Below, one piece after another: positions 6,151-34,541 of a stretch of DNA of 64,000 bases. The DNA is taken from IMG/VR virus record IMGVR_UViG_2526164631_000023; one strand, 5' to 3'. Under the pieces are notes generated by a model. It worked only from the letters and a program-made list of their open reading frames with translations. It made no database searches and was not told where the DNA came from. Origin of the DNA: a virus (taxonomy: Duplodnaviria; Heunggongvirae; Uroviricota; Caudoviricetes). Position 1 is the first letter of the stretch. Each line of letters starts with the position of its first letter. The translations under genes and the position numbers were made by a program.

Positions 6151-6543
6151 TCATTGTCGCCATGCATTTTTTAACTCAGGAATATCTGCCATTTCAATTA
6201 ACTTGCGAAGTCCAGCACTGACTTTCCCATTGCCAACCATAGCAAGCCAATCTCTTACAGCTTTCGGCATGTAGAGCGTTGCAGTTACCGGCTCTTCAAC
6301 CCTGGCAGGACATCCGCATACAGGCCATTTAATTGATTCCATAACTTCGGATGCCGGGGTGAGGGCGGGGACATTGAGTATATCTCTACCAGAAAACTGG
6401 ATAACGATCCGTTCAGCGAGCGAGAGTATCTCACTTTCGGCAAGAATTGATGCCAACTGCGCCTCAACAAGAAAGCGACTTGTTGTGTTCAGAGAGTGGC
6501 TCTTAGCGCCATTTTTATACGAAACAAAGATTCGATACGCCAT
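6151..6543 (-). CDS. Hypothetical protein (130 aa)
   Basis: ORF only; first gene of the leftward unit; operator-like motif just upstream of its start. Confidence 0.3.
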   Translation of the reverse strand: MAYRIFVSYKNGAKSHSLNTTSRFLVEAQLASILAESEILSLAERIVIQFSGRDILNVPALTPASEVMESIKWPVCGCPARVEEPVTATLYMPKAVRDWLAMVGNGKVSAGLRKLIEMADIPELKNAWRQ

Positions 6544-6556
6544 AACTCTAATGATT

Positions 6557-6575
6557 TGTGTTAGAAAACTAAAAT
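6557..6575 (+). promoter_or_regulatory. Operator-like motif copy a (TGTGTTAGAAAACTAAAAT)
   Basis: Member of a dispersed family of asymmetric ~19-bp sites, consensus tGTGTTAGAAA(a/t)(c/t)TAA(a/t)T. Confidence 0.45.
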
Positions 6576-6701
6576 TAAATCACATAACAACATGAGTGTT
6601 AATATATTTTATTTTACTAAACCTATTGACTAAATCACAAAGTAGGTATTGTTAGCCCGTCAAAAGAACCTTCACGCCGCGCCCGAATTTAGGGCTTAAC
6701 C

Positions 6702-8399
6702 GTGAATAAAAACATTCAGCCAGCTCGTGATCGCGAGCGCGAGATTATGAATCGGGCGGCAAGCGTCATGGCTATGACCGTCGATCCGACCACCGATGCA
6801 GCAGGCAACATGATTGCTGACCAGGCAGTAATGATGGAAAACCTGGATAAAGCAATCCAGAAAGTGCCTATGTTTGAAGGCGTAAATCCAGAGGTCGCTC
6901 GTCAGATCACTGGTGGGTGGGCTATGTCTCTGCATGAGTATAAACGTCAACATGGTCATTACCCGGCAAGTGACATCCTGGCGAACGCACACATGGCTCT
7001 TGAGCGCCTGATGACTGAATGTGCCAGTGATACCCATGAAGGCACGGGTAAGGCAATGTTTGAGTCTGTCGCGCAATCAATGCGTAGCTCTGACGGCGTA
7101 ATGAAAGTTGCTCAATATGCTGCTCTAATTCTGCCTGCCTCTCTGGGCGCTGCTACCAGTGATGCCTGTACTTTTGTTCCTTGTGATCGTGACGAGTCAA
7201 ATATTTATGAACTGGTCAACGTAGCAGGCACAAAATTCGGCACCTTCAACCAAGGTGACGAACTGAATATGCAGTCAGCTGGTGTTTATTCTCAAATGAA
7301 GCGCCTGTATGCCCTTTCCACTAAAGGGGATGGCAGCACCAAAACCTTCCAGTTCAACATCCAAAATTTTGAGGGACAATCCTGCCCGCTTCGCGCTGGT
7401 TATAACAAACTGCTGATCAACCGCAAACCGTCCAAAGTTGACGACGGCGATGGCAACCTTTATTTCAATGCTAAAGACAGCAAAGGTAATGCTTTCTCAG
7501 CGACTGCCAAAGTTGCCTATGACACTGGTGTCATTGACATTACATTTACCCAGGCTCCGCCAGAAGGTACTGAAATTGCTGTTCAGGTCGAAATTAACAT
7601 CGAGCGCAATCCAAGCCTGATTCCGGTGATCAACCAGGCTATGCGTAAGTACGAAGTTCGTCCGTCCCAGTACGTACTTGCTTCCGAACACACGGTAATG
7701 TCCGCATCCGATTTAAGCCGTGAGCACGGCCTTGAATTAGCGGCACTTCAGTTCTCCGCGATGCGCAACTGGATCTCCCATGAAACCGACATCATGCGTC
7801 TGCGCACCCTGGTATTCCATACCGTTTATGGTCGTGAATTTGATGTGGCTCTGCCGGAAGCTCAAAACTATGAGTCCTGGGTCGGTCTCCTGCGTCACGT
7901 AGTAAACGCTCTGTCTCAAGAAATGGCAAATCGTACCCTGACAACGGGTATTCGTGGCGGCTTTGCTGGTAGTGACGCCGCGAACTTCCTGCGCTCTCTG
8001 CCTCCACAGCACTTCCAGATCGCACCAGGTTACGTTCAGTCGCCGTATGTACAGTACATCGGCACCCTGTTTGGCACGATTCGTATTTACGAAGTGCCGC
8101 AACCTGTCTGTGAGCAATTCCAGGCACAGGGATATGACTTCGGGCTGGATGACATCTTCTTCTATGGGCGTGGCGAAGGCATCGGTAAAGCCGGTCTGAT
8201 TGCTGGTGATGCAGTCCCAGCAATCCCTTACGTTCACGAAACCAATCCGTCTCTCGTTAACCGTACCACTCTCTGGGGCAGTGCCATCAACGAAGTACAT
8301 CCTCGCAACGGTGAAAACTACTTCACCCGCCTGCGTCTGACTCGTGCCAAAGAAGGTGCTATCGACATGCTGACAGGCAAGGTTAACGAAAAAAAGTGA
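6702..8399 (+). CDS. Virion structural protein, candidate major head protein (565 aa)
   Basis: Large ORF opening the structural block; size close to the P1 major head protein as remembered; assignment by size and context only. Confidence 0.35.
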   Translation: MNKNIQPARDREREIMNRAASVMAMTVDPTTDAAGNMIADQAVMMENLDKAIQKVPMFEGVNPEVARQITGGWAMSLHEYKRQHGHYPASDILANAHMALERLMTECASDTHEGTGKAMFESVAQSMRSSDGVMKVAQYAALILPASLGAATSDACTFVPCDRDESNIYELVNVAGTKFGTFNQGDELNMQSAGVYSQMKRLYALSTKGDGSTKTFQFNIQNFEGQSCPLRAGYNKLLINRKPSKVDDGDGNLYFNAKDSKGNAFSATAKVAYDTGVIDITFTQAPPEGTEIAVQVEINIERNPSLIPVINQAMRKYEVRPSQYVLASEHTVMSASDLSREHGLELAALQFSAMRNWISHETDIMRLRTLVFHTVYGREFDVALPEAQNYESWVGLLRHVVNALSQEMANRTLTTGIRGGFAGSDAANFLRSLPPQHFQIAPGYVQSPYVQYIGTLFGTIRIYEVPQPVCEQFQAQGYDFGLDDIFFYGRGEGIGKAGLIAGDAVPAIPYVHETNPSLVNRTTLWGSAINEVHPRNGENYFTRLRLTRAKEGAIDMLTGKVNEKK

Positions 8400-21766: not shown

Positions 21767-22612
21767 ATGAAAGATAATTGGCTTAAGGAACGATTAACTA
21801 AAGTAAAACAGGATTCACATCTCTGGAGTGCATTTATAGACGCTTTACAGGATGTCTGGAATGAGGCAGTAGAACCAATATTAACAAGAATAAGTAACAG
21901 AAAATCCTTCTTCACTATGGACAGTGAGGACATGGATGCCCGCATTGCTGAATACGGGCGTTTTTTCGTTATCACTGAAAAAGATAAGGACCGTAGGCCA
22001 ATGCTGCTGGCGCAACGTTTAGATGAAGTGCACTTTAAAGGCACTATCTTGCCTATTGAGCAGACATTCTGGCGTGAATTCGGTTGTATTCCTGTTAGTT
22101 GGGAACCGCTGTATGCACCTGTAAATATAGAAAAACACCCCTATGGTTCATATTTTGCGACCGAAATAGAAATACCTACGGCACAGGCTCAATTCGGTGA
22201 GTTCTTCCTGACATCAAGGGGGCTGGTCGTTGTTGATCAGAACAAGCTATATCGCTCATATGGAGAGCAGGATAAAGAAGCCGCTGTGCAGAAATTGTTA
22301 TCTGACTTCGAAACAGTAATAGCCCCTTTGTTGCCATTGCATATTGTTTTTGATGGCGTCTCGTTTCGGCTTAGTGCTGTATTCCCTGAAGTGGCAGAAA
22401 TACTAAATTGCTTGTCTACGGATGTTTCGGTAATTGAAGGTGTTTATGTTACTGAGAGTATGGCTGATATGCTATCCCGTAGTGATACCTCCTGCCAGGT
22501 AAACAATATTTCTCTTAACGCCATACCGAACAGAACGGCAGAAAAGCAATTACATCTTGATGTAACCCCACTCGATGCGTGGCCTTTGGATTACCACCTT
22601 CAACCTGTTTAA
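21767..22612 (+). CDS. Candidate baseplate/tail protein (281 aa)
   Basis: Position only; followed by hairpin cttccccc/gggggaag at 22618-22640. Confidence 0.3.
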   Translation: MKDNWLKERLTKVKQDSHLWSAFIDALQDVWNEAVEPILTRISNRKSFFTMDSEDMDARIAEYGRFFVITEKDKDRRPMLLAQRLDEVHFKGTILPIEQTFWREFGCIPVSWEPLYAPVNIEKHPYGSYFATEIEIPTAQAQFGEFFLTSRGLVVVDQNKLYRSYGEQDKEAAVQKLLSDFETVIAPLLPLHIVFDGVSFRLSAVFPEVAEILNCLSTDVSVIEGVYVTESMADMLSRSDTSCQVNNISLNAIPNRTAEKQLHLDVTPLDAWPLDYHLQPV

Positions 22613-22706
22613 TAATTCTTCCCCCAAATGCGGGGGAAGAACAACGGAAATCACAAACTGAGCATACTCTCCTTTGGTTCATTGCTTATGAAGGGGCTAT
22701 GTTCGT

Positions 22707-23153
22707 ATGGCTGAAAATTTAAAGGCAAGAGATGGTAACCGCCTGTATAAGGCGCAATTGCTTTCCTACTATTATTCACGCCGCGCTGAGTCGGCGATCG
22801 GCAAAGGTGCGCGTTTTGTTATCTCTAAGGCGTATTGGTGCAAATCTAGTCTGGTAACTGCTAATGGTGCAGGAGGCTGGAATATAGCGGACATTCCACT
22901 CGATTTTAAATTGAGAAACGCTCAGCAGTTTGCTGTGTCCGATCTGATATTGTCCAGTGTGGATGGGATTATCACTATCAATGCAGCCTTCCCTCAAGAA
23001 AGAATGCCGGATAACACGCCTTACGACTTTAACACGCTTGTGCTTGTTGATGCTGAGGAACAGGCTTTTGCTGTGCTTTGCACCCAGCAAGACACCCTCT
23101 ATAAAGGTAAACGTTACAGTATTCTCATGACAATCGAGCAAGTTGAGGGTTGA
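22707..23153 (+). CDS. Tail-fibre operon protein (R-position), 148 aa
   Basis: Immediately upstream of and overlapping the tail-fibre gene. Confidence 0.35.
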   Translation: MAENLKARDGNRLYKAQLLSYYYSRRAESAIGKGARFVISKAYWCKSSLVTANGAGGWNIADIPLDFKLRNAQQFAVSDLILSSVDGIITINAAFPQERMPDNTPYDFNTLVLVDAEEQAFAVLCTQQDTLYKGKRYSILMTIEQVEG

Positions 23154-26100
23154 TTATGGGTGCTGATAAAACGAACAACATAATGACACTATCCTCTGGT
23201 GTCTCACAGCCGTTGCTTGCTGATGTTCAATATTTCGAACTCTATAGTAGTTCGGCTCTTAACAGAAAACTTAAAAATATTGTTTTGCCGGGCTTTTACT
23301 GTGGATTTGAACCAGTTCCCGGCGCAGGGTTGAGAGTCCGTATAACTTCTGAAAACTCAGAAGGTAAAGGGGCTGCTTCAGTAGATGTAAATAATGTTCA
23401 GATATCCGTTCAGCAAATAGAAGATGTGACTGTCTCGGTAAAGGCTGGGGCTACCAACATTATTGTGCTAGAAGCCAATTTTGAACATGGTGTAAAAACG
23501 ACACAGGTAGAGAGCGCATCTTCTGTCAGTGCTGCAAGAATTTACGCGCGTACGGACAATACTATTGGGCAGAATCAAATTGAATTATGTCGAGTTATCG
23601 TGCCTAACGGCGCAACGGCTGTGACGAAAGAAATGATTGTGCTTAAATACCGGGTTAACCGTGCTGTTGGTGTCGAATTCTCTAATGAAATAAGCAGTAC
23701 AGAAGAAAGAAAAGCGGCTACACCTCTGGCTGTCAAAACTCTCCATGATTTGGTTGATACAAAAGCTCCGCTCGATAGTCCACATCTGTCAGGTACGCCG
23801 ACAGCACCTACGGCCTCACAAGGCACAAATAGCACGCAGATTGCAAATACAGCCTTTGTTAAGGCAGCTATAACTGCACTTATCAACGGTGCACCTGGCA
23901 CACTGGATACGCTGAAAGAAATAGCGGCTGCGATCAATAACGACCCGAATTTCAGCACAACTATCAACAATGCCCTGGCTCTCAAAGCGCCTTTGGCAAG
24001 CCCGGCGTTCACAGGTACGCCGACAGCACCTACGGCCTCACAAGGCACAAATAGCACGCAGATTGCTACGACCGCTTATGTAAGAGCTGCCATATCCGCA
24101 TTGGTTGGTTCATCACCAGAAGCTCTTGATACCCTGAATGAGCTTGCCGCAGCACTTGGTAATGACCCGAACTTTGCGACAACAATGACAAATGCGCTGG
24201 CAGGCAAACAGCCTCTGGATGCAACTTTAACCGCTCTTGCTTCCCTTGCGACTGGTGCAAACAAACTGCCTTATTTCACGGGTAAGGATACGGTAGCTCA
24301 GACTGATTTAACGTCAGTCGGTCGCGATATTCTGGCTAAAACAAGCATACTGGCCGTTATCCAATACCTTGGTTTAAGAGAACTCGGTACCAGCGGTGAA
24401 AAGATCCCCCTGTTAAGCACAGCTAACACATGGAGTGCGCGCCAGACTTTCAACGGCGGGATCACCGGGGCGCTGACAGGGAACGCCGACACCGCGACGA
24501 AATTGAAAACCAAAAGGTCGCTTCAAGTTGACCTCCAAAGTGATAACGCCATCGACTTTGATGGTTCATCAAATGCTCTTCTGGGCATAAAAGGTATTTT
24601 ACCAATTACTCATGGGGGATTAGGTGCATCCAGCGTCTCTGGAGGGCGTACTAATCTTGGATTAGGTGTTGCGGACGTCCCCCAATTTAAGGGTATCAAT
24701 CTTGTTAACTCAACAGACGCTGATTTAGCCGCGTCAGGGATTGTAAGTGGTTATCTGAATAATTCAGCTGGGGTACAGAGGAGTCGTTTCAGAATTTATT
24801 CAGAGATAAGGAGTGGCAACCGCTCATGGCTGACGTTACATCTACAATCTGATACCAACACCAATAAATATGCCGGATTAGACATTGACGGTAACTTTCT
24901 GATTACCGGAGATAGCAAATGCCGAGCATTAGAACCAACTGATGCAGCGTTAACAAGAAAAAATATTGATGTTTACAGCAAAGCCGAAGTAGACCTTAAA
25001 AAAGGGATGAAATTCACCAGAGTCAATGCTCCTTCTGGAGCTGAAGAGGGTAAATTCTATCCTGTAGTCATCAAGAGATCTGCAACGAGCAATGGTGAAC
25101 TTGCTTCTCGGGTTATTATTTCCACTGCGTCGCGCCAAGCTGCACATCGCATGAACAACTGCGAATTCAATGGTTTTGTGATGCCTGCTGGTTGGAGTGA
25201 CAGAGGGCGGTACGCATACGGGATGTTCTGGCAATATCAGGATGCAGAACGGGCGATTCATTCTATTGCGATGAGCAATAAAGACGATGAAGTTAGCTCA
25301 GTTTTTTATATTGAAGGCGGAGCATTTCCAGTATGCGTTCTTGTGGAGGAGGGGCTTTCTGTTGTTGTCCCTACAACGGATTATATTGTTGGACAAACCA
25401 CATACAAATGGGGGGCTACCAACCCTAAAGCTGAATGTATAGCTGCCGACATAATTATTGATTTTAGCAATGGTCGTGGTTTCTATAGCTCTGGAAACCT
25501 CAATGGTAATGCTGCAACAGCAACTAAATTACAGACCGCCAGAACAATCAACGGAGTAACCTTCGATGGCACTACTGATATTTCGTTGACACCAGAGAAC
25601 ATTGGCGCGCTGTCTCTATCCGGAGGCACATTATTAGGAGGTCTGACAGCTCCATTACTTACCACTAAAAGCGATCTTATTTTTAGTAGCCATACAAGCC
25701 GTCATATCCGCTTTACATATACGAAAAATGACGGCACAACACTAACTGATGGGTACATATTTAAAGATGGCGTCGATAACCCTAACAGACGACCAGGCAT
25801 CCGGATAAATTGTGCTGCGCCGAATAAAGAAACCGGCAATGGTACTAATTCAGGTGATTGGATATTCGGTGAAGATGGCATTTTTACCATGCCGGGTGGC
25901 ACTGTTCTTCGGGGAGGAATCAATAGCAATGGCGTGCCGCAAAGTGAGTATAAACATGACATGCTCACGTCAGTTGTTGACGATGCAAAAATGTATCTGC
26001 GACGTTTCCGCTCCAGCACAGGTGCAAGCATATGGCATGAAACAATAGAGAATAATGTTTATCGCTTATGCACAGGAACAACTGACGCTCAGGAAGAGTT

Positions 26101-27475
26101 AGTCTTGAGGACTGGTTCCTATGCGAAATTCGCTGGCGAGATTATTTCCAAATCGGCGAATGGTCTGCGCATTGTCTATGGCAACTATGGATTCTTTATC
26201 CGAAACGATGGTTCAAGCACATACTTCATGTTGACCGATTCGGGTAACAGCCTAGGAACCTATAATAGGTTAAGGCCGCTTATCATTAACAATGCCAATG
26301 GTGCTGTTACGATCGGTAATGGACTCAATGTTACTGGCGGCATCAATGGTAGTTTGAACGGTAATGCTGCAACTGCAACAAAACTGCAAACAGCACGCAC
26401 AATAGGCGGTGTGTCATTCGATGGCTCCGCCAATATCAACCTGCCGGGTGTAAACATTGCTGGTAACCAGAACACAACCGGTAATGCAGCGACAGCGACC
26501 AAGTTGCAGACAGCATGTACTATCAACGGCGTCTCGTTTGATGGTTCTAAAGATATTGAACTTAACCCACGGTCTATAGGCACGATCAACTCCACAACAA
26601 TGTCTTTTAGTGGTGGTGCTGGATGGTTCAAGCTAGCAACTGTAACCATGCCACAGGCCAGTTCCGTGGTTTACATAAGCCTGATTGGTGGTGCAGGGTA
26701 TAACGTTGGCTCCCCGCATCAAGCAGGCATCTCTGAGCTGGTTCTGCGTGCCGGAAATGGAAATCCAAAAGGTATTACTGGTGCATTATGGCGACGGACC
26801 TCGGTTGGATTTACTAATTTTGCATGGGTGAATACATCTGGTGATACCTATGATGTTTATGTTGAAATAGGTAATTACGCCACAGGTGTTAATATTCAGT
26901 GGGATTATACCAGTAACGCCAGCGTAACGATTCATACATCACCAACTTATACAGCGAATAAACCAACAGGCCTGACAGATGGAACTGTATATGTAATTTA
27001 CAGTTCGCACATTAAACCGACTGCTGCTGATGTTGGGGCGTTGTCATTATCTGGAGGTCAATTGAATGGTGCACTGGGCATCGGAACATCCAGTGCTCTT
27101 GGCGGTAACTCGATTGTTTTGGGTGATAATGACACGGGCTTTAAACAAAATGGCGACGGTAATCTGGACGTTTATGCTAATAACGTCCATGTTATGCGCT
27201 TTGTCTCCGGCAGCATTCAAAGTAATAAAACCATAAATATTACAGGGCGTGTTAACCCCTCGGATTACGGTAACTTTGATTCCCGTTATGTGAAAGATGT
27301 TCGCCTGGGTACGCGTGTTGTTCAATTGATGGCGCGTGGTGGTCGTTATGAAAAAGCCGGACACGCAATTACCGGATTAAGAATCATTGGTGAAGTAGAT
27401 GGCGATGATGAAGCCATCTTCAGACCAATACAAAAATACATCAATGGCACATGGTATAACGTCGCACAGGTGTAA
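23150..27475 (+). CDS. Tail fibre protein S: constant N-terminal part fused to the currently expressed variable C-terminal cassette
   Basis: 1441 aa with repeated GNAATATKLQTARTI(N/G)GV(S/T)FDGS motifs and C-terminal ..INGTWYN; shares internal segments with reverse-strand cassette. Confidence 0.8.
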   Translation: MIMGADKTNNIMTLSSGVSQPLLADVQYFELYSSSALNRKLKNIVLPGFYCGFEPVPGAGLRVRITSENSEGKGAASVDVNNVQISVQQIEDVTVSVKAGATNIIVLEANFEHGVKTTQVESASSVSAARIYARTDNTIGQNQIELCRVIVPNGATAVTKEMIVLKYRVNRAVGVEFSNEISSTEERKAATPLAVKTLHDLVDTKAPLDSPHLSGTPTAPTASQGTNSTQIANTAFVKAAITALINGAPGTLDTLKEIAAAINNDPNFSTTINNALALKAPLASPAFTGTPTAPTASQGTNSTQIATTAYVRAAISALVGSSPEALDTLNELAAALGNDPNFATTMTNALAGKQPLDATLTALASLATGANKLPYFTGKDTVAQTDLTSVGRDILAKTSILAVIQYLGLRELGTSGEKIPLLSTANTWSARQTFNGGITGALTGNADTATKLKTKRSLQVDLQSDNAIDFDGSSNALLGIKGILPITHGGLGASSVSGGRTNLGLGVADVPQFKGINLVNSTDADLAASGIVSGYLNNSAGVQRSRFRIYSEIRSGNRSWLTLHLQSDTNTNKYAGLDIDGNFLITGDSKCRALEPTDAALTRKNIDVYSKAEVDLKKGMKFTRVNAPSGAEEGKFYPVVIKRSATSNGELASRVIISTASRQAAHRMNNCEFNGFVMPAGWSDRGRYAYGMFWQYQDAERAIHSIAMSNKDDEVSSVFYIEGGAFPVCVLVEEGLSVVVPTTDYIVGQTTYKWGATNPKAECIAADIIIDFSNGRGFYSSGNLNGNAATATKLQTARTINGVTFDGTTDISLTPENIGALSLSGGTLLGGLTAPLLTTKSDLIFSSHTSRHIRFTYTKNDGTTLTDGYIFKDGVDNPNRRPGIRINCAAPNKETGNGTNSGDWIFGEDGIFTMPGGTVLRGGINSNGVPQSEYKHDMLTSVVDDAKMYLRRFRSSTGASIWHETIENNVYRLCTGTTDAQEELVLRTGSYAKFAGEIISKSANGLRIVYGNYGFFIRNDGSSTYFMLTDSGNSLGTYNRLRPLIINNANGAVTIGNGLNVTGGINGSLNGNAATATKLQTARTIGGVSFDGSANINLPGVNIAGNQNTTGNAATATKLQTACTINGVSFDGSKDIELNPRSIGTINSTTMSFSGGAGWFKLATVTMPQASSVVYISLIGGAGYNVGSPHQAGISELVLRAGNGNPKGITGALWRRTSVGFTNFAWVNTSGDTYDVYVEIGNYATGVNIQWDYTSNASVTIHTSPTYTANKPTGLTDGTVYVIYSSHIKPTAADVGALSLSGGQLNGALGIGTSSALGGNSIVLGDNDTGFKQNGDGNLDVYANNVHVMRFVSGSIQSNKTINITGRVNPSDYGNFDSRYVKDVRLGTRVVQLMARGGRYEKAGHAITGLRIIGEVDGDDEAIFRPIQKYINGTWYNVAQV
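24357..24382. other. gix/cix-like 26-bp recombinase crossover site (site A), in frame inside the fibre gene
   Basis: TTATCCAATACC TT GGTTTAAGAGAA matches remembered Gin-site TTATCCAAAACCTCGGTTTACAGGAA at ~20/26; encodes VIQYLGLRE. Confidence 0.5.
26132..26365. repeat. 234-bp inverted repeat, copy 1 (inside S), ~98% identical to reverse complement of 29167-29400
   Basis: Both copies encode EIISKSANGLRIVYGNYGFFIRNDGSSTYFMLTDSGNSLGTYNRLRPLIINNANGAVTIGNGLNVTGGINGSLNGNA. Confidence 0.8.
26196..26221. other. Candidate crossover site B inside the inverted repeat
   Basis: TTATCCGAAACG AT GGTTCAAGCACA; left half fits Hin-family half-site; inverted copy at 29310-29335. Confidence 0.3.
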
Positions 27476-27478
27476 ATT

Positions 27479-28006
27479 ATGCAGCATTTAAAAAATATTA
27501 AGTCAGGAAATCCAAAAACAAAAGAGCAATATCAGCTAACAAAGAATTTTGATGTTATCTGGTTATATACAGAAGACGGTAAAAACTGGTATGAGGAAGT
27601 AAATAACTTTCAGGACGACACCATAAAGATTGTTTACGATGAAAATAATATTATTGTCGCCATCACCAAAGATGCATCCACGCTTAACCCTGAAGGTTTT
27701 AGCGTCGTTGAGGTTCCCGATATTACAGCCAACCGCCGCGCTGATGATTCAGGAAAGTGGATGTTTAAGGATGGAGCTGTAGTTAAACGGATTTATACGG
27801 CAGACGAGCAACAACAACAGGCCGAATCACAAAAGGCCGCATTGCTTTCCGAAGCTGAATCAGTCATCCAACCGCTGGAACGCGCTGTCAGGCTGAATAT
27901 GGCAACAGACGAGGAACGCACACGACTGGAAGCATGGGAACGCTACAGTGTTCTGGTCAGCCGTGCGGATACGGCAAATCCTGAATGGCCACAAAAACCA
28001 GAGTAA
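27479..28006 (+). CDS. Tail fibre assembly chaperone (U/Tfa) for the current cassette
   Basis: 175 aa; N-terminal half ~70% identical to reverse-strand paralog 28035..28568; starts 4 nt after S stop. Confidence 0.8.
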
Positions 28007-28010
28007 AAAT

Positions 28011-28030
28011 TAAGGCCCGATAGCGGGCCT
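28011..28030. terminator. Bidirectional hairpin between convergent U and U' genes
   Basis: aaggcccgatagcgggcctt: 7-bp stem aggcccg/cgggcct. Confidence 0.45.
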
Positions 28031-28034
28031 TCTC

Positions 28035-28568
28035 TCATTCTGGTTGTTCGGGAAACGTTACTGGCAGGCCGGAAGTGTCTGTAGATTCGACTTTCTGCGC
28101 ATAGAGCATCCACTCGGTTAATTTTTGTTTATTCTCGTCGGAAATGATGCCCAGCCGTAGCTGTGAGTCCCATAGCTGGGTTTTATCCCTGACAAGTTGC
28201 AACAGGCTTTGCTTTTCATTTTCCGCTTGTTGCCTCTGCTCTTCCTCGGTATAAGTTCGCTTTATCACTACGCCATCTTTGAACATCCATTTCCCCGAAA
28301 TATCAGCCCGGCGATTTGCTGTAATATCAGGTAATTCAACGACGCTTGCACCCTCTGGATTAATTGCTGAAACATCCTTTTCAATACAAATAATAACGCC
28401 GTTATGGTCATAGACCATTTTCAAAGTGTCTGGCTGGAAATTCTTTTGTTCCTCATACCAGTTTTTTCCATCATCTGAATAAAGCCATTTGATGTTAAAT
28501 TGCTTTGTTAGCTGGTATTGCTCTTTTGTTTTAGGGTTGCCAGCAGTAATGTTTTTTAAGTGCATCAT
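28035..28568 (-). CDS. Alternative tail fibre assembly chaperone (U')
   Basis: 177 aa paralog of U on the opposite strand, directly downstream of the alternative fibre cassette. Confidence 0.8.
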   Translation of the reverse strand: MMHLKNITAGNPKTKEQYQLTKQFNIKWLYSDDGKNWYEEQKNFQPDTLKMVYDHNGVIICIEKDVSAINPEGASVVELPDITANRRADISGKWMFKDGVVIKRTYTEEEQRQQAENEKQSLLQLVRDKTQLWDSQLRLGIISDENKQKLTEWMLYAQKVESTDTSGLPVTFPEQPE

Positions 28569-28570
28569 CG

Positions 28571-30241
28571 TTAAATACTCCCCGCGTTATACCACGTCCC
28601 ATTAATGCAATACTGAATTGGCCTTGCCTGAGTTGTATCAATTAATTCATCACGGTTTCCGTTAACTGAACCCGTAACGACATAACCTGACCTGTCAGAC
28701 CAGCCGGGACCATTCCATGTCTGAACAGATGACAGACCGCCAAGGCGAATACCTGTAATAAACCTTGAGTTACATTCTGCCTGCGTGTATGCACCAACAT
28801 CTCCCGCAGAGGGTTTGCGGGTCGTGGTGTAAAACTCTGACCAGTCAGCCTCAAATCCATAACCATCACGCGCTGAACGATAAAAGATACCGCCGTTTTT
28901 ATAATTCACGCGGAACTGTACAGCAGGGCAACTCCCCGCATTCATATTAAAGTGGAGGATTAATGTCGATGCGCCACCAATGTTTGCGTTATAGACCCCG
29001 CTATTCCAGTTCCAGCCAACAGCTTTATCATTTGCGACCCTGCTTCCTGTTTGCCCTAGAGCAAACGCACCTACATGACTTGCTTTTAATGTGATATCGG
29101 AGGAACCATCAAAAGCCACGCCACTTATTTTTCTGGCAGTTTGTAACTTTGTAGCCGTAGATGCATTACCGTTCAAACTACCATTGATGCCGCCAGTAAC
29201 ATTGAGTCCATTACCGATCGTAACAGCACCATTGGCATTGTTAATGATAAGCGGCCTTAACCTATTATAGGTTCCTAGGCTGTTACCCGAATCGGTCAAC
29301 ATGAAGTATGTGCTTGAACCATCGTTTCGGATAAAGAATCCATAGTTGCCATAGACAATACGAAGACCATTCGCCGATTTGGAAATAATCTCGCCAGCAG
29401 CAGTTAATCCGCCAGTTAACGCTCCTCCAGATAGTGGTAAAGCTCCGACATCAGCCGCAGTAGGCTTGTTTTTAGTGTTATACGCTCTGCGCCATCCTGG
29501 TGAATAACTTGTGCCATTAGACACATAGATAAATTCAGCATTAGTGAGTGCGCCAGATACACTTGTCATCGTTGCCGTTGTTATTCGAATGGTGTAATTG
29601 TTGGTATTATTGCTGAATACTTCTATCACAGCACCCGCCAGTGGAATAATGCCACAACCAGTTTCACTGTCTGGTATGGATGCACTATTTGCATACGCCC
29701 AAGCACAACGAGCGAACCATGCTTTCGTATTGAATGCCCCGTTATTTTGCAACAAAGTAACTAACTGGGCTGTCGTTATTGACTCACCGTTATTACCTGT
29801 TGTTAACCAACCAGTAGGAGATGCCGGGCAACCAATATTTGCTGGTGACAGTGAAATATTCGCAGAACCGTCAAATGAAACCCCATTAATGGTACGTGCT
29901 GTTTGTAATGTCGTGGCAGACGCCGCATTTCCTGTTGTGTTCTGGTTGCCCGTTGTATTTACGCCCGGTATGGAGTCTTTCGATGTATAGACCTGTGCCC
30001 ACTCAGACCATGCCGCACCTGTGTAATCTCTTCGGGAGCGAATGAAAACTGGCGCATGTGCACCGCTCGTACCACTCCAGCCAATAAGCAACTCGCCCTC
30101 ACCAGCAGCACTCGCACCTTTCATGTGCAATACGTTGCCATACGTGGTCGGGTAGCTATTGTTGTACGCCTCGTACATTTGAATGCCAGCAGCGCCTTGA
30201 GTAGAGCCGCTTAACGCCGTAACTCGGCCACGAGATACCAA
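28571..30241 (-). CDS. Alternative tail fibre C-terminal cassette (Sv'): promoterless, no credible start
   Basis: Track start is TTG without SD and frame closes 15 codons upstream; fibre repeats (GNQNTTGNAASATTLQTARTINGVSFDGS) and C-terminal ..INGTWYNAGSI. Confidence 0.7.
   Translation of the reverse strand: MVSRGRVTALSGSTQGAAGIQMYEAYNNSYPTTYGNVLHMKGASAAGEGELLIGWSGTSGAHAPVFIRSRRDYTGAAWSEWAQVYTSKDSIPGVNTTGNQNTTGNAASATTLQTARTINGVSFDGSANISLSPANIGCPASPTGWLTTGNNGESITTAQLVTLLQNNGAFNTKAWFARCAWAYANSASIPDSETGCGIIPLAGAVIEVFSNNTNNYTIRITTATMTSVSGALTNAEFIYVSNGTSYSPGWRRAYNTKNKPTAADVGALPLSGGALTGGLTAAGEIISKSANGLRIVYGNYGFFIRNDGSSTYFMLTDSGNSLGTYNRLRPLIINNANGAVTIGNGLNVTGGINGSLNGNASTATKLQTARKISGVAFDGSSDITLKASHVGAFALGQTGSRVANDKAVGWNWNSGVYNANIGGASTLILHFNMNAGSCPAVQFRVNYKNGGIFYRSARDGYGFEADWSEFYTTTRKPSAGDVGAYTQAECNSRFITGIRLGGLSSVQTWNGPGWSDRSGYVVTGSVNGNRDELIDTTQARPIQYCINGTWYNAGSI
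29167..29400. repeat. 234-bp inverted repeat, copy 2 (inside Sv')
   Basis: Reverse complement nearly identical to 26132-26365. Confidence 0.8.
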
Positions 30242-30265
30242 TGTATTAATGTTGGTTTAAGAGAA
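30240..30265. other. Second gix/cix-like site (site C), same orientation as site A
   Basis: AATGTATTAATG TT GGTTTAAGAGAA; right half and next ~130 bp identical to site A flank. Confidence 0.4.
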
Positions 30266-30568
30266 CTCGGTACCAGCGGTGAAAAGATCCCCCTGTTGAG
30301 TACGGCTAACACATGGAGTGCACGCCAGACTTTCAACGGCGGGATCACCGGGGCGCTGACAGGGAATGCCGACACCGCGACGAAATTGAAAACAGCACGC
30401 ACGATTGGCGGTGTGGTATTTGATGGCTCGGCCAATATCAACCTTCCAGGTGTAAATACAACAGGTAACCAGAACACCACCGGGAATGCTGCTACCGCGA
30501 CAAAACTTGCGACGGCAAGAAACATCAACGGTGTTAAGTTTGATGGCTCAGGCGATATCAAGGTTTAG
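30252..30568 (+). pseudogene. Third, short tail-fibre 3' cassette (S'') lacking a start codon; possible remnant
   Basis: First 142 bp ~96% identical to 24369-24510; encodes ..GLRELGTSGEKIPLLSTANTWSARQTFNGGITGALTGNADTATKLKTARTIGG..GDIKV; stop overlaps invertase stop. Confidence 0.5.
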
Positions 30569-31125
30569 GATTGAAATGATGACGCCGGAAACTTCTTATA
30601 AAGCGTGGAAACAGCCACATCATAGATGATTGCAACCTGCTTACGGGGGATGCCCTTCTCCAGCAATCGCCGCATTTGCTGCCATGTTTCTTCTTGGTAT
30701 TTAGGCCGACGCCCACCTATACGACCTTCTGCGCGAGCTGCATCAAGTCCAGCGCGTGTACGTTCAACGATAAGCTCGCGTTCCATTTCTGCCAGCGCCC
30801 CCATTACGTGAAAGAAAAAGCGCCCCATTGGTGTACTGGTGTCGATGGAGTCAGTGAGACTCCGGAAGTTAATGCCTTTGTCACGAAGCTCTTCCACCAG
30901 CACAACCAAGTGACGCATGCTGCGCCCAAGACGATCTAACTTCCATACGACTAGGGTGTCACCTCTGGAAAGCATACGGAGAACCTTTTTTAACCCAGGG
31001 CGTTCAGCCTTTTTGCCGCTCGCCTTATCCTCAAAAATTAGCTCACATCCTGCGCTTTCAAGGGCGTTTCGTTGTAAAGCTGTGTTTTGGTCATTAGTTG
31101 ATACGCGAATGTATCCAATAAGCAT
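30565..31125 (-). CDS. Serine DNA invertase, Hin/Gin/Cin/Min family
   Basis: From ATG (complement 31125) MLIGYIRVSTNDQN..GDTLVVWKLDRLGRS..MGALAEMERELIVERT.. with catalytic Ser in the YxRVST motif and C-terminal HTH; SD aagggg upstream; track start 31185 is an in-frame upstream extension. Confidence 0.9.
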   Translation of the reverse strand: MLIGYIRVSTNDQNTALQRNALESAGCELIFEDKASGKKAERPGLKKVLRMLSRGDTLVVWKLDRLGRSMRHLVVLVEELRDKGINFRSLTDSIDTSTPMGRFFFHVMGALAEMERELIVERTRAGLDAARAEGRIGGRRPKYQEETWQQMRRLLEKGIPRKQVAIIYDVAVSTLYKKFPASSFQS

Positions 31126-31229
31126 ATGTCCCCCTTGTATGTTAAGGAGGGAGATTTTAGAAGATGTCCTGTAAGGAAATAACAAACTGACTAAGTTAGT
31201 GGCGCATTAGATGTTATTTCTGGAGGGGT

Positions 31230-31556
31230 ATGTTTGCAGATTATGAAAATCTGGCTGTAGTAGTCATAACATCCCTACTAAGTGGAACCGGCGTATTCCT
31301 TCTCGGAGTTAGAGACGGGCGCATTTCTGCGTCCCTGCTCAATCTTGCGAGTGAATTGTTTACTGCGGTAACAGCCGGGCTTGCGGGGTATGGGGTGGCG
31401 GTTAGCCAAGAATGGCCTGAAGGTATCATTTTCTGCGTTGTTCTGATTGCCAGTAACAACGGTAGTGAAATTTTACAGGGCTTAAAGTCCAGAGCTAGTA
31501 ACGTCTTGAATCTCTTAAGCGTAATAGCGAATGGGGGAAAAGGTGGAGAGAAATAA
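31230..31556 (+). CDS. Holin-like small membrane protein (P1 LydA position)
   Basis: 108 aa with hydrophobic segments; SD ggagggg; first gene of a long rightward operon. Confidence 0.4.
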   Translation: MFADYENLAVVVITSLLSGTGVFLLGVRDGRISASLLNLASELFTAVTAGLAGYGVAVSQEWPEGIIFCVVLIASNNGSEILQGLKSRASNVLNLLSVIANGGKGGEK

Positions 31557-32612: not shown

Positions 32613-34541
32613 CAATCCTTTACGAATTAATATTCAGTCTACTTTTGCTGATACGATCCCCGGCTATATGCCAAGTCGCTGGTCTTCAGAAGAATTAAGC
32701 GAAGATGACCTGATTTTTGAGGCGGCGACCTTAGAAGATATTGAGCTTGCCTATATGGGCAATGAAATTCTGGTTGTGTCTGACGAAGCTATGTTTGAGT
32801 CCATAACTACAACCAGAATTCGGTTAGCTCAAACAATGCGAGCTTTCGTCCGTGCGCTGAATCGTGGCCTGAATGGTACGAATATTATGGCAGGGACTGA
32901 TGAAGCCGGGACCGATGAAAATGGACGTAATTGTATTGGTGGTGCGATTATCGGTCGTGTACGTCGGGTAGCTAATATCCCTGTTTTGACCGCGCAGATA
33001 CCGCTTACTGACGGGCAGAGTACAAGCATAATTTTCCACTCTCCAACAGCTGACGGGGCAAAAATAAAGAGTAACGACGAGCTTGTTGCATTTCAGTTTT
33101 TACTTAATAAGCGTAACGTAACTCACGTTGTCGCCCCGATTGGTGGGAGAGATGTTTCTTTAAGCCAGGTATGCCAGGCGCTATCTAATTTGATTGAGCG
33201 TAACAGCGAAAAATTTAAGAAGGCAAAAGAGCGCCAGGACAAAATGAAGGCAGATATTGAGAGTTATCTCAATGAAGCAGATAAACTGGCAGAAGAACGG
33301 TCAATAATGATTGATCAGGTGGACGTTGCGCAACGTGGGCTGACTGAAAAGCGTGCTGCTCTTACGGAGATGCAAAAAAACTTGATGCCCAGAAAGCCAT
33401 CAACGAGGAATTACAAGCAAAACGCGATAAATTGTTGTCTGCTAAAGGTGAAAAAACGAAAGAACGAGCGTTTAGCGACCAGCTGCGACATGTAAAACAT
33501 AATCTTGCCATTGACGGAAAAACAGTGCTGGATAATGGCGCTGAAGTTAATTATGTCACGTCCGGCAGTGACAATTTCGTTACGATAGTAGCACCTGAAG
33601 GTAAATTCAGTATTGATGCCAGTGCTGTCAAAGGAGGCAGTTTGGCAGATGCTGCAACCAAATTACTTAAAGCCTACCGAGAGCATAACGCAGATAAATA
33701 TAAAGTTGATGTGTTACCAGGCCAGCAGGAAGACCCCGAACCACCACAGACAGACCCCGAGACGAACCCAGTATCACAACCAGAGAGCCAGGATGTAGGT
33801 AAATACCACTATGCACTTCAATCTCGCCCGGCTGGTGTTGGTGCTGTGCCGGATGGAAATAAAGCCGTGCTTGATCGTCCTGACCAGGCTGATCAGTATT
33901 ACGAATATGCTCGTCACGGTATCATTACGTATGACCGTAAACTGACAGATGAAGAAGTCAGCCAGTACGAGTTGCTCTATCTTCCTGATGAAGATGAGCT
34001 GAAAGATTTTGCAGGCCAATTGGTTGTGTCCAGCATGTCGAAACATATTGATGGCTATGTAGACCTGTTTGGCAGTGACCTGAAAACATTCAAGGCGCAA
34101 GTGAAAATTCTTTTCCGCAAAGCGTTTCCAAACGTGGCGTATCCACTTGGTGATGGGGAGAACCTTTTCATTATGGACGTATATAACGCCCTTCAAAATC
34201 ATTCAAACGAAGTAACGCCAGAGCCTGAATTAGCACCTGTAGTTGAGCCAGAATCACACCCACAAACAGCACCAGAGCAACAGCCAACGCCGGAAGACGC
34301 TGAAGAAGCGGCAACTGAAGCTGATCAGGAAGCAGATAAAGCACTGGAGTACCTAAAATCCGTCCCGGTGCAGTTTACATCTCGCGATCTGACGGTAATC
34401 AGTGCCGAACTTGACCATGTGCAGGAAGCTGCAAACGCTCTTATCAGTGCTGGTCGATACGACGAGAACGAATCAACGGTTGGCGCAGCAGTTGACTACC
34501 TGATCAACATTCTGGCTGAAATTCAGCAGGGAGGTGCTTAA
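32604..34541 (+). pseudogene. darA-like virion antirestriction/head gene split by +1/-2 frameshift in an A7 tract (33374-33380)
   Basis: ORFs 32566..33495 and 33432..34541 overlap in different frames; one extra A gives a continuous ~645-aa protein (..TEMQKKLDAQKAINEELQAKRDKLLSAKGEK..), size close to P1 DarA as remembered. Confidence 0.5.

Follow-up and report, generated by a model that had tools for sequence, protein, structure and literature searches.

The window analysed here, a stretch of 64,000 nucleotides (nt) from the virus record IMGVR_UViG_2526164631_000023, belongs to a P1/D6-like phage-plasmid: D6 and P1 are its nearest phages in the similarity comparison, and the stretch tested (29700-30900) is 100% identical to plasmid pDEC12A-1 (NZ_CP077480.1) of Escherichia coli O111:H2 strain 12A. 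It carries a Cin/cix tail-fibre inversion switch in an unusual isomer. Two copies of a 142-bp sequence lie in the same orientation on either side of the variable region, and a short reading frame, S'', which begins in the second copy, ends against the gene of the invertase Cin. Both peculiarities are very probably explained by one natural off-target inversion, in which Cin would have recombined the site cixL with a secondary site located within the silent fibre end and flipped the short segment between them (segment D). The features needed to follow this reading are listed below, with the coordinates of the window.

23156..24368, + strand: Sc, the constant part of the tail-fibre gene S, 95-96% identical to Sc of D6 and other P1-like elements
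24357..24382, + strand: s1, the cixR equivalent, TTATCCAATACC-TT-GGTTTAAGAGAA, core at 24369-24370, score 24/24
24369..24510, + strand: left copy of the 142-bp repeat ('neck'), opening into shaft A
29399..30253, - strand: segment C, the middle of the silent alternative fibre end Sv'
30240..30265, + strand: s2, a hybrid site, AATGTATTAATG-TT-GGTTTAAGAGAA
30252..30393, + strand: right copy of the repeat, which opens Sv' as its neck; direct in the window, inverted in relatives
30254..30559, + strand: segment D (= S''), 306 bp or 102 codons, N-terminal module of Sv', in reverse orientation to the remaining Sv'
30548..30573, + strand: s3, a hybrid site, TCAGGCGATATC-AA-GGTTTAGGATTG, overlapping the stop codon of cin
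30565..31125, - strand: cin, encoding a serine DNA invertase of 186 amino acids (aa)

The crossover sites provide the first line of evidence. In switches of the Cin/Gin/Hin/Pin family such sites are 26 bp long, with two inverted 12-bp half-sites on either side of a 2-bp core, and form pairs of inverted orientation whose cores match. In P1, cixR reads TTATCCAATACC-TT-GGTTTAAGAGAA and cixL, which overlaps the stop codon of cin, reads TTCTCTTAAACC-AA-GGTTTAGGATTG; the same canonical cixL is found in D6 and in IMG/VR contigs, and all 34 IMG/VR matches to the cin-proximal half of cixL carry the canonical inner half. In the window, the s1 26-mer is identical to P1 cixR. The site s2 is made of the outer half of a secondary site and the inner half of cixL, with its core oriented as in s1; s3 is made of the inner half of the secondary site and the cin-proximal half of cixL, and retains an AA core that is inverted relative to s1. 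The two sites are thus reciprocal hybrids, as expected from recombination between cixL and a secondary site TCAGGCGATATC-AA-CATTAATACATT. This secondary site has the same AA core as cixL, matches the cix half-sites at 7/12 and 4/12 positions, and is not conserved in CP056796, P1 or D6.

When 30254-30559 is flipped back in silico, a perfect canonical cixL returns and the fibre end becomes continuous in frame (...VKFDGSGDI-N-INTLVSRGRVTAL...), the restored junction reading FDGSGDININTLVSRGRVTAL, as does P1 Sv' at that position. Both breakpoints are located precisely at the two core nucleotides of cixL. The exchange partners share only ~3 bp of homology at the joints, and homologous recombination therefore does not explain the flip of D and was ruled out as its cause. 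Breakpoints on a true cix core and on a weak look-alike with the same core, reciprocal hybrid products and so little homology are together what a secondary-site event leaves behind. Cin is reported to use secondary crossover sites 'at rare occasions' (Arber, PMC4270481), and matching cores are needed for ligation in the serine-invertase family (PMC4817059).

The event can be pictured as follows. Cin would recombine cixL with the weak secondary site, situated 306 bp inside the silent fibre end and possessing the same AA core. This exchange would flip segment D (30254-30559), bring the right-hand neck into the same orientation as the left one and detach D from the remaining Sv', leaving the reciprocal hybrid sites s2 and s3. 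The positions of the breakpoints point to Cin as the likely catalyst.

A plasmid that carries the same DNA in another arrangement provides the second line of evidence. NZ_CP066033.1, from E. coli FDAARGOS_1059, has the same length as NZ_CP077480.1 (97,453 bp) and differs from the 64-kb window only by an insertion of the insertion sequence IS100, a handful of substitutions and gaps, and the invertible region. In this sibling, S'' is identical at 310/310 positions and lies directly behind Sc, inside an annotated fibre of 1239 aa that continues in frame from S'' into the remaining Sv' (C') as ...FDGSGDI-N-INTLVSRGRVTAL.... Besides C and D, the invertible region of the window comprises the following segments.

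24383..26131, + strand: segment A, the shaft module of the fibre now expressed (segment map)
26132..26438, + strand: arm a of an inner 307-bp inverted repeat
26439..29091: segment B, containing tip 1, U, U' and tip 2, 92-94% identical to the U/U' region of P1, D6 and Mu
29092..29398, - strand: arm a', the inverted copy of arm a

The segment order is Sc / A a B a' C / D / cin in the window and Sc / D C' a B a' A' / cin in the sibling, so that both orientations of the invertible segment are present in otherwise near-identical DNA (NZ_CP077480.1 versus NZ_CP066033.1). Window 22601-31400 (8.8 kb) becomes an exact substring of NZ_CP066033.1 after three in-silico inversions: one of D between the cores of s2 and s3, one of the entire segment between s1 and cixL, and one of B between the inner sites. 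The canonical cixL is intact in the sibling. The sequence relationships and this exact reconstruction from the sibling are direct observations. On a separate point, IS100 lies in a darA-like head-protein gene of NZ_CP066033.1 (42588-44543) and is lacking at the corresponding place in the window (~34008-34012), yet both records have 97,453 bp.

The 142-bp repeat itself is accounted for by the same arrangement. Its copies (24369-24510 and 30252-30393), both in the same orientation, align with no gap and are identical at 137/142 positions, far beyond chance; the mismatches, at repeat positions 47, 50, 53, 71 and 116, leave unbroken identity blocks of 46, 2, 2, 17, 44 and 26 bp. Both copies open with TT-GGTTTAAGAGAA, i.e. 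the core and one cix half-site, in the same frame, and both encode the identical 47-aa peptide GLRELGTSGEKIPLLSTANTWSARQTFNGGITGALTGNADTATKLKT. All five differences are synonymous, which argues that both copies are under coding constraint. The repeat is a conserved 47-codon 'neck' that opens every variable fibre end after the crossover point, and it corresponds to the start of the terminal inverted repeats of the P1 C segment. In P1 and D6, the same 142-145 bp are found at both ends of the invertible segment, just inside cixR and just inside cixL, with 95-97% identity and in inverted orientation. An inverted neck also lies beside the IMG/VR cixL matches with readable flanks, with a single exception, a divergent locus (L017); in about 30 IMG/VR contigs, as in P1 and D6, the two copies are inverted. 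Since every variable end starts with a neck, a normal switch holds two inverted copies, one at cixR and one at cixL. The P1-type arrangement, with inverted terminal repeats inside the cix sites, is absent from the window isomer and present in NZ_CP066033.1; the right neck is direct in the window because segment D is flipped. Likewise, the stop codon of the S'' frame (TAG, 30566-30568) overlaps that of the minus-strand invertase gene (TAA, 30565-30567) as a by-product, because the flipped segment adjoins the cin-proximal half of cixL.

Plasmids and genomes with the flip are rare: 0/507 matching plasmids are colinear with window 29700-30900 and 0/529 carry the s2-type junction; a single one of the 484 E. 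coli genomes with a match has the colinear arrangement, and this is the source itself. The exact s3 junction is absent from GTDB representative genomes, and the exact s2 and s3 junctions are absent from IMG/VR. Colinear matches for the s3 region are limited to Escherichia albertii plasmids, which result from a different event (see below). This rarity and the lack of conservation of the secondary site fit a rare accidental event. Some points weigh against an off-target Cin inversion. The window isomer comes from one finished assembly; the choice between Cin and another illegitimate event as the cause turns on the breakpoint positions only; and the secondary site has one half that agrees with the cix half-site consensus at only 4/12 positions. 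Moreover, the two siblings differ by three inversions and very few substitutions; the flip of D could be commoner in this lineage than the word 'rare' implies.

The consequences of the flip for the fibre can be deduced from the products predicted in silico for each rearrangement:

present isomer: 1441-aa fibre and U
ordinary switch, s1 x s3: stump of 410 aa ending ...IQYLDIA*
s2 x s3 followed by the ordinary switch: a fibre with the alternative shaft, of 1069 aa with tip 2 or 1241 aa with tip 1, according to the orientation of B
flip of B alone: 1269-aa fibre with tip 2, and U'
predicted 24369/30252 deletion: 511 aa ending GDIKV*, with neither tip nor assembly gene

The expressed 1441-aa fibre would therefore be unaffected by the flip of D, and the alternative shaft would be regained only once s2 x s3 recombination flips D back. 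Such a flip can thus silently disable half of a host-range switch, since the normal inversion would now lead to the 410-aa stump.

The preliminary description of this DNA had suggested that S'' may be a remnant or a third truncated tip and had proposed that the direct repeat makes the variable region deletion-prone. Much of what it reported is borne out: the repeat is direct and ~96% identical, its copies are in the same frame relative to the crossover sites, they are spaced by about 5.9 kb (5883 bp from start to start), and the stop codon of S'' overlaps that of the invertase gene. The deletion geometry is also right, as recombination between the copies would fuse the constant part to S'' in a 511-aa product. 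The 46- and 44-bp perfect blocks make the repeat a formal substrate for RecA, which could act on them as its minimum is roughly 25 bp, and seven E. albertii P1-like plasmids provide a comparable natural deletion. The interpretation of S'' does not survive comparison with the sibling, in which a 100% identical module (310/310) is in frame inside the 1239-aa fibre; this identity to an expressed module and the purely synonymous differences between the repeat copies led to rejection of the status of remnant or third cassette. Furthermore, S'' ends within a repeat motif, has no tip domain (no Pfam match) and has no assembly gene behind it, and its two-codon tail and stop derive from the cixL half-site, as do the last two codons and the stop of the deletion product. 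S'' is a silent, intact, displaced coding module.

The label 'deletion-prone' fares no better. The 24369/30252 junction was found in no record of PLSDB, the complete E. coli genomes, the GTDB representative genomes or IMG/VR; the deletion would remove the receptor-binding tip together with U and U', and the E. albertii junction sits at a different site. Taken together, a decayed cassette flanked by a deletion-prone repeat is very unlikely, and the direct repeat is better seen as an incidental by-product of the inversion of D. A deletion between s1 and s2, which are in direct orientation, is nevertheless possible, either through the action of Cin or through RecA acting on the blocks of 46 and 44 bp, with a dead-end 511-aa fibre as the outcome. 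By either route the prophage would become defective but could still be maintained as a plasmid. The enhancer-dependent synapse biases wild-type invertases towards inversion (PMC3798978, PMC4817059).

The E. albertii plasmids merit a separate description. In all seven, the S gene is shortened to 687 aa and runs in sense into the cin half of cixL; it occupies 6167-8230 in NZ_CP034164.1 (L008), and six similar plasmids (H97-H102) are known. In this gene, Sc is followed by the neck and by ~0.69 kb of a P1-like Sv' in the sense orientation, and the joint to the cin half of cixL reads ATATTCCAAACA-AA-GGTTTAGGATTG. Everything else in the segment is missing from these plasmids, including the two tips and the two assembly genes. 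From its sequence, the fusion looks like a natural deletion between cixL and another internal look-alike site. These derivatives show that tipless fusions adjoining cin occur in nature, by an event other than the deletion predicted between the two necks. Together with the flip of D, they indicate that errors of invertases at look-alike sites within fibre genes do remodel these genes and lead to their decay in phage-plasmids.

Another explanation is that D is a programmed third invertible segment of a multiple-inversion system resembling Min of p15B, a P1-related plasmid where a single Cin-like invertase works on six mix sites, and so on more than one pair, to give many isomers of the fibre gene. 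Two almost identical plasmids do differ by three separate inversions, D among them; the event is reciprocal and reversible, s2 and s3 being inverted with matching cores; and an additional inner pair of cix-like sites is present. However, each p15B segment supplies an alternative 3' coding end, whereas D supplies none: its reverse strand, placed in the expressed position, stops after three codons (...IQYLDIA*). For this reason, D is not a p15B-type segment. In addition, its internal site is weak (7/12 and 4/12) and not conserved in CP056796, P1 or D6, and no other P1-like plasmid, among more than 500, and no IMG/VR cixL site shows the flipped state. On these grounds a programmed role of D was rejected as highly improbable. 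The possible extra sites of the window also differ from those of p15B in being nested and in having a symmetric AT core, and their use by Cin is putative. Finally, an assembly artefact, in which mixed inversion isomers would have been collapsed into a chimeric consensus, is extremely improbable: invertible regions are a known source of mis-joins and the arrangement is found in one record only, but the adjacencies of C with the start of D and of the end of D with cin exist in neither canonical isomer and offer no common repeat to mislead an assembler, and both novel joints are reciprocal and lie exactly on the 2-bp cix core. As a separate observation, the 5293-nt contig IMGVR_UViG_3300012281_000016 (L010) carries two inverted copies of the cin end and cixL near its ends, with identical 60-nt flanks, an arrangement that probably arose during assembly as a palindromic artefact of a segment that inverts.

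The flip of D aside, the locus has the general layout of a P1-type switch. The gene order is an R-like gene, S and U, then U' and a 556-aa fibre 3' end on the minus strand, S'' on the plus strand, the invertase gene on the minus strand, lydA and lydB. The remaining features are the following.

23156-27475, + strand: S, the whole gene expressed in the window isomer (RefSeq start); counted from TTG at 23150, its open reading frame encodes 1441 aa
ending at 27475, + strand: tip 1, in segment B
27479-28006, + strand: assembly gene U
28035-28568, - strand: assembly gene U'
28571-29091, - strand: tip 2
28571-30241, - strand: open reading frame of the 556-aa fibre 3' end
26196-26221 (+) and 29309-29334 (-): inner cix-like site TTATCCGAAACG-AT-GGTTCAAGCACA, with a symmetric AT core
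31036..31107, - strand: recombinational enhancer (sis) near the 5' end of cin and inside the gene, assigned from homology with the enhancer annotated in P1

The invertible segment contains two fibre 3' ends and two assembly genes, each pair in opposed orientation, as indicated by the open reading frames, by matches to Caudo_TAP and by homology to P1, D6 and Mu; the profile search found Caudo_TAP and gp37_C domains in segment B. Segment C is severed from its own N-terminal module in the window isomer. Cin comprises a resolvase domain (PF00239, 3e-51) and a C-terminal HTH_7 domain (PF02796, 3e-18), and 183/186 of its residues (98%) are identical to those of P1 Cin. The enhancer is identical to the P1 enhancer feature at 68/72 positions; by homology, it would correspond to the Fis-dependent enhancer of invertase switches, binding of Fis being predicted.

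RefSeq annotates NZ_CP077480.1 with a partial tail-fibre pseudogene at 30338-30559, within S'', and with a 535-aa 'hypothetical protein' that starts at an internal codon of the detached body of Sv' (28571-30178). Both labels are annotation consequences of the flip of D, and 'partial tail fiber pseudogene' fragments located beside cin deserve to be checked for such flips.

A further difference between the window and its sibling is that B is turned round relative to the shafts, so that the fibre tip and its assembly gene have been swapped independently of the shaft. Single-nucleotide polymorphisms (SNPs) specific to each arm map the crossover of B to a 197-bp perfectly identical part of the 307-bp repeat, which contains the inner cix-like site. 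This site is the best non-canonical cix-like 26-mer of the region (17/24, with 0.26 such sites expected per region). In several lineages, there is a step in arm identity beside it. In the arms of CP056796 and CP076307, SNPs occur up to 8 nt outside the site, and 388 nt inside it are free of them. In the Salmonella plasmid pCFSAN058545_02 (NZ_CP077708.1, L083), copies of the site lie at 6373 (+) and 8873 (-), and the arms are ~70% identical outside it, 100% identical from -12 to +27 (a 40-bp island) and ~90% identical inside. P1 and D6, which have a single copy, are three synonymous changes away from the cix consensus.

These data make it possible, though only tentatively, that a single Cin runs a nested two-tier shuffling of the fibre. 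Recombination at the outer sites, with TT/AA cores, would swap shaft and tip together, and recombination at the inner sites, with AT cores, would swap only the tip and its assembly gene; mismatched core dinucleotides would keep the two tiers apart. Two shafts and two tips would thus give four fibres, of 1441, 1269, 1241 and 1069 aa (from the TTG start). RecA recombination within the 197-bp perfect inverted repeat, which is a good substrate for RecA, could explain the inner flip just as well. Use of the inner site is also called into question by the finding that its 26-mer is single-copy in 20 of 24 IMG/VR loci within the DNA examined. The same loci give no clear association between the cix-like codon version and the presence of paired inverted copies, and this candidate link was dropped.

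The locus belongs to the P1 Cin/cix family, on the evidence of its recombinase, its cixR, its enhancer, its opposed fibre ends and the inversion observed. It resembles the P1 C segment (and those of D6 and P7) in the order R, S, U, U', Sv', cin (convergent with S), lydA and lydB, in the 98% identity of Cin, in its identical cixR, in a cixL overlapping the cin stop, in its enhancer (68/72) and in its neck (95-97%). It differs in several respects: the terminal repeats of P1 are inverted and 0.62 kb long, whereas those of the window are 142 bp and direct in this isomer; cixL is split into two hybrid sites; the fibre has 1441 aa versus 988 aa in P1; and there is an extra inner inverted repeat with a cix-like site.

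Secondary ('quasi-cix') crossover sites of Cin were reportedly studied in the laboratory by Iida, Hiestand-Nauer and Arber in the 1980s. The event proposed here would share with theirs the pairing of a true cix with a poor match of the same core, the reciprocal hybrid products and the rarity; unlike theirs, it would be natural, fixed in a wild phage-plasmid and located inside a fibre gene, 306 bp from cixL, and would not have been selected on an engineered plasmid. The finding is a natural instance of a known enzyme error, neither a new mechanism nor a new system. It would be a clean natural example, in a phage-plasmid of clinical E. coli, of the off-target recombination by Cin known from Arber's group, and what looked like a short third cassette and a deletion-prone direct repeat is one displaced module of an ordinary P1-type switch.

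Two other sets of repeats were observed in the fibre genes. Sc contains an 89-nt direct repeat (23790-23878 and 24012-24100, 85% identical, 222 nt apart), which matches in position the repeated elements b1/b2 annotated in P1 Sc. An 80-nt coding motif, TGNAATATKLxTARxIxGVxFDGSxxI, is present in five copies (25502-25581, 26357-26436, 26477-26556, 30359-30438 and 30479-30558) that are 61-100% identical to the reference copy and are in tandem, at a spacing of 120 nt, in two places. It is found in both shafts and in S'' and is a possible substrate for in-frame gain and loss of repeats.

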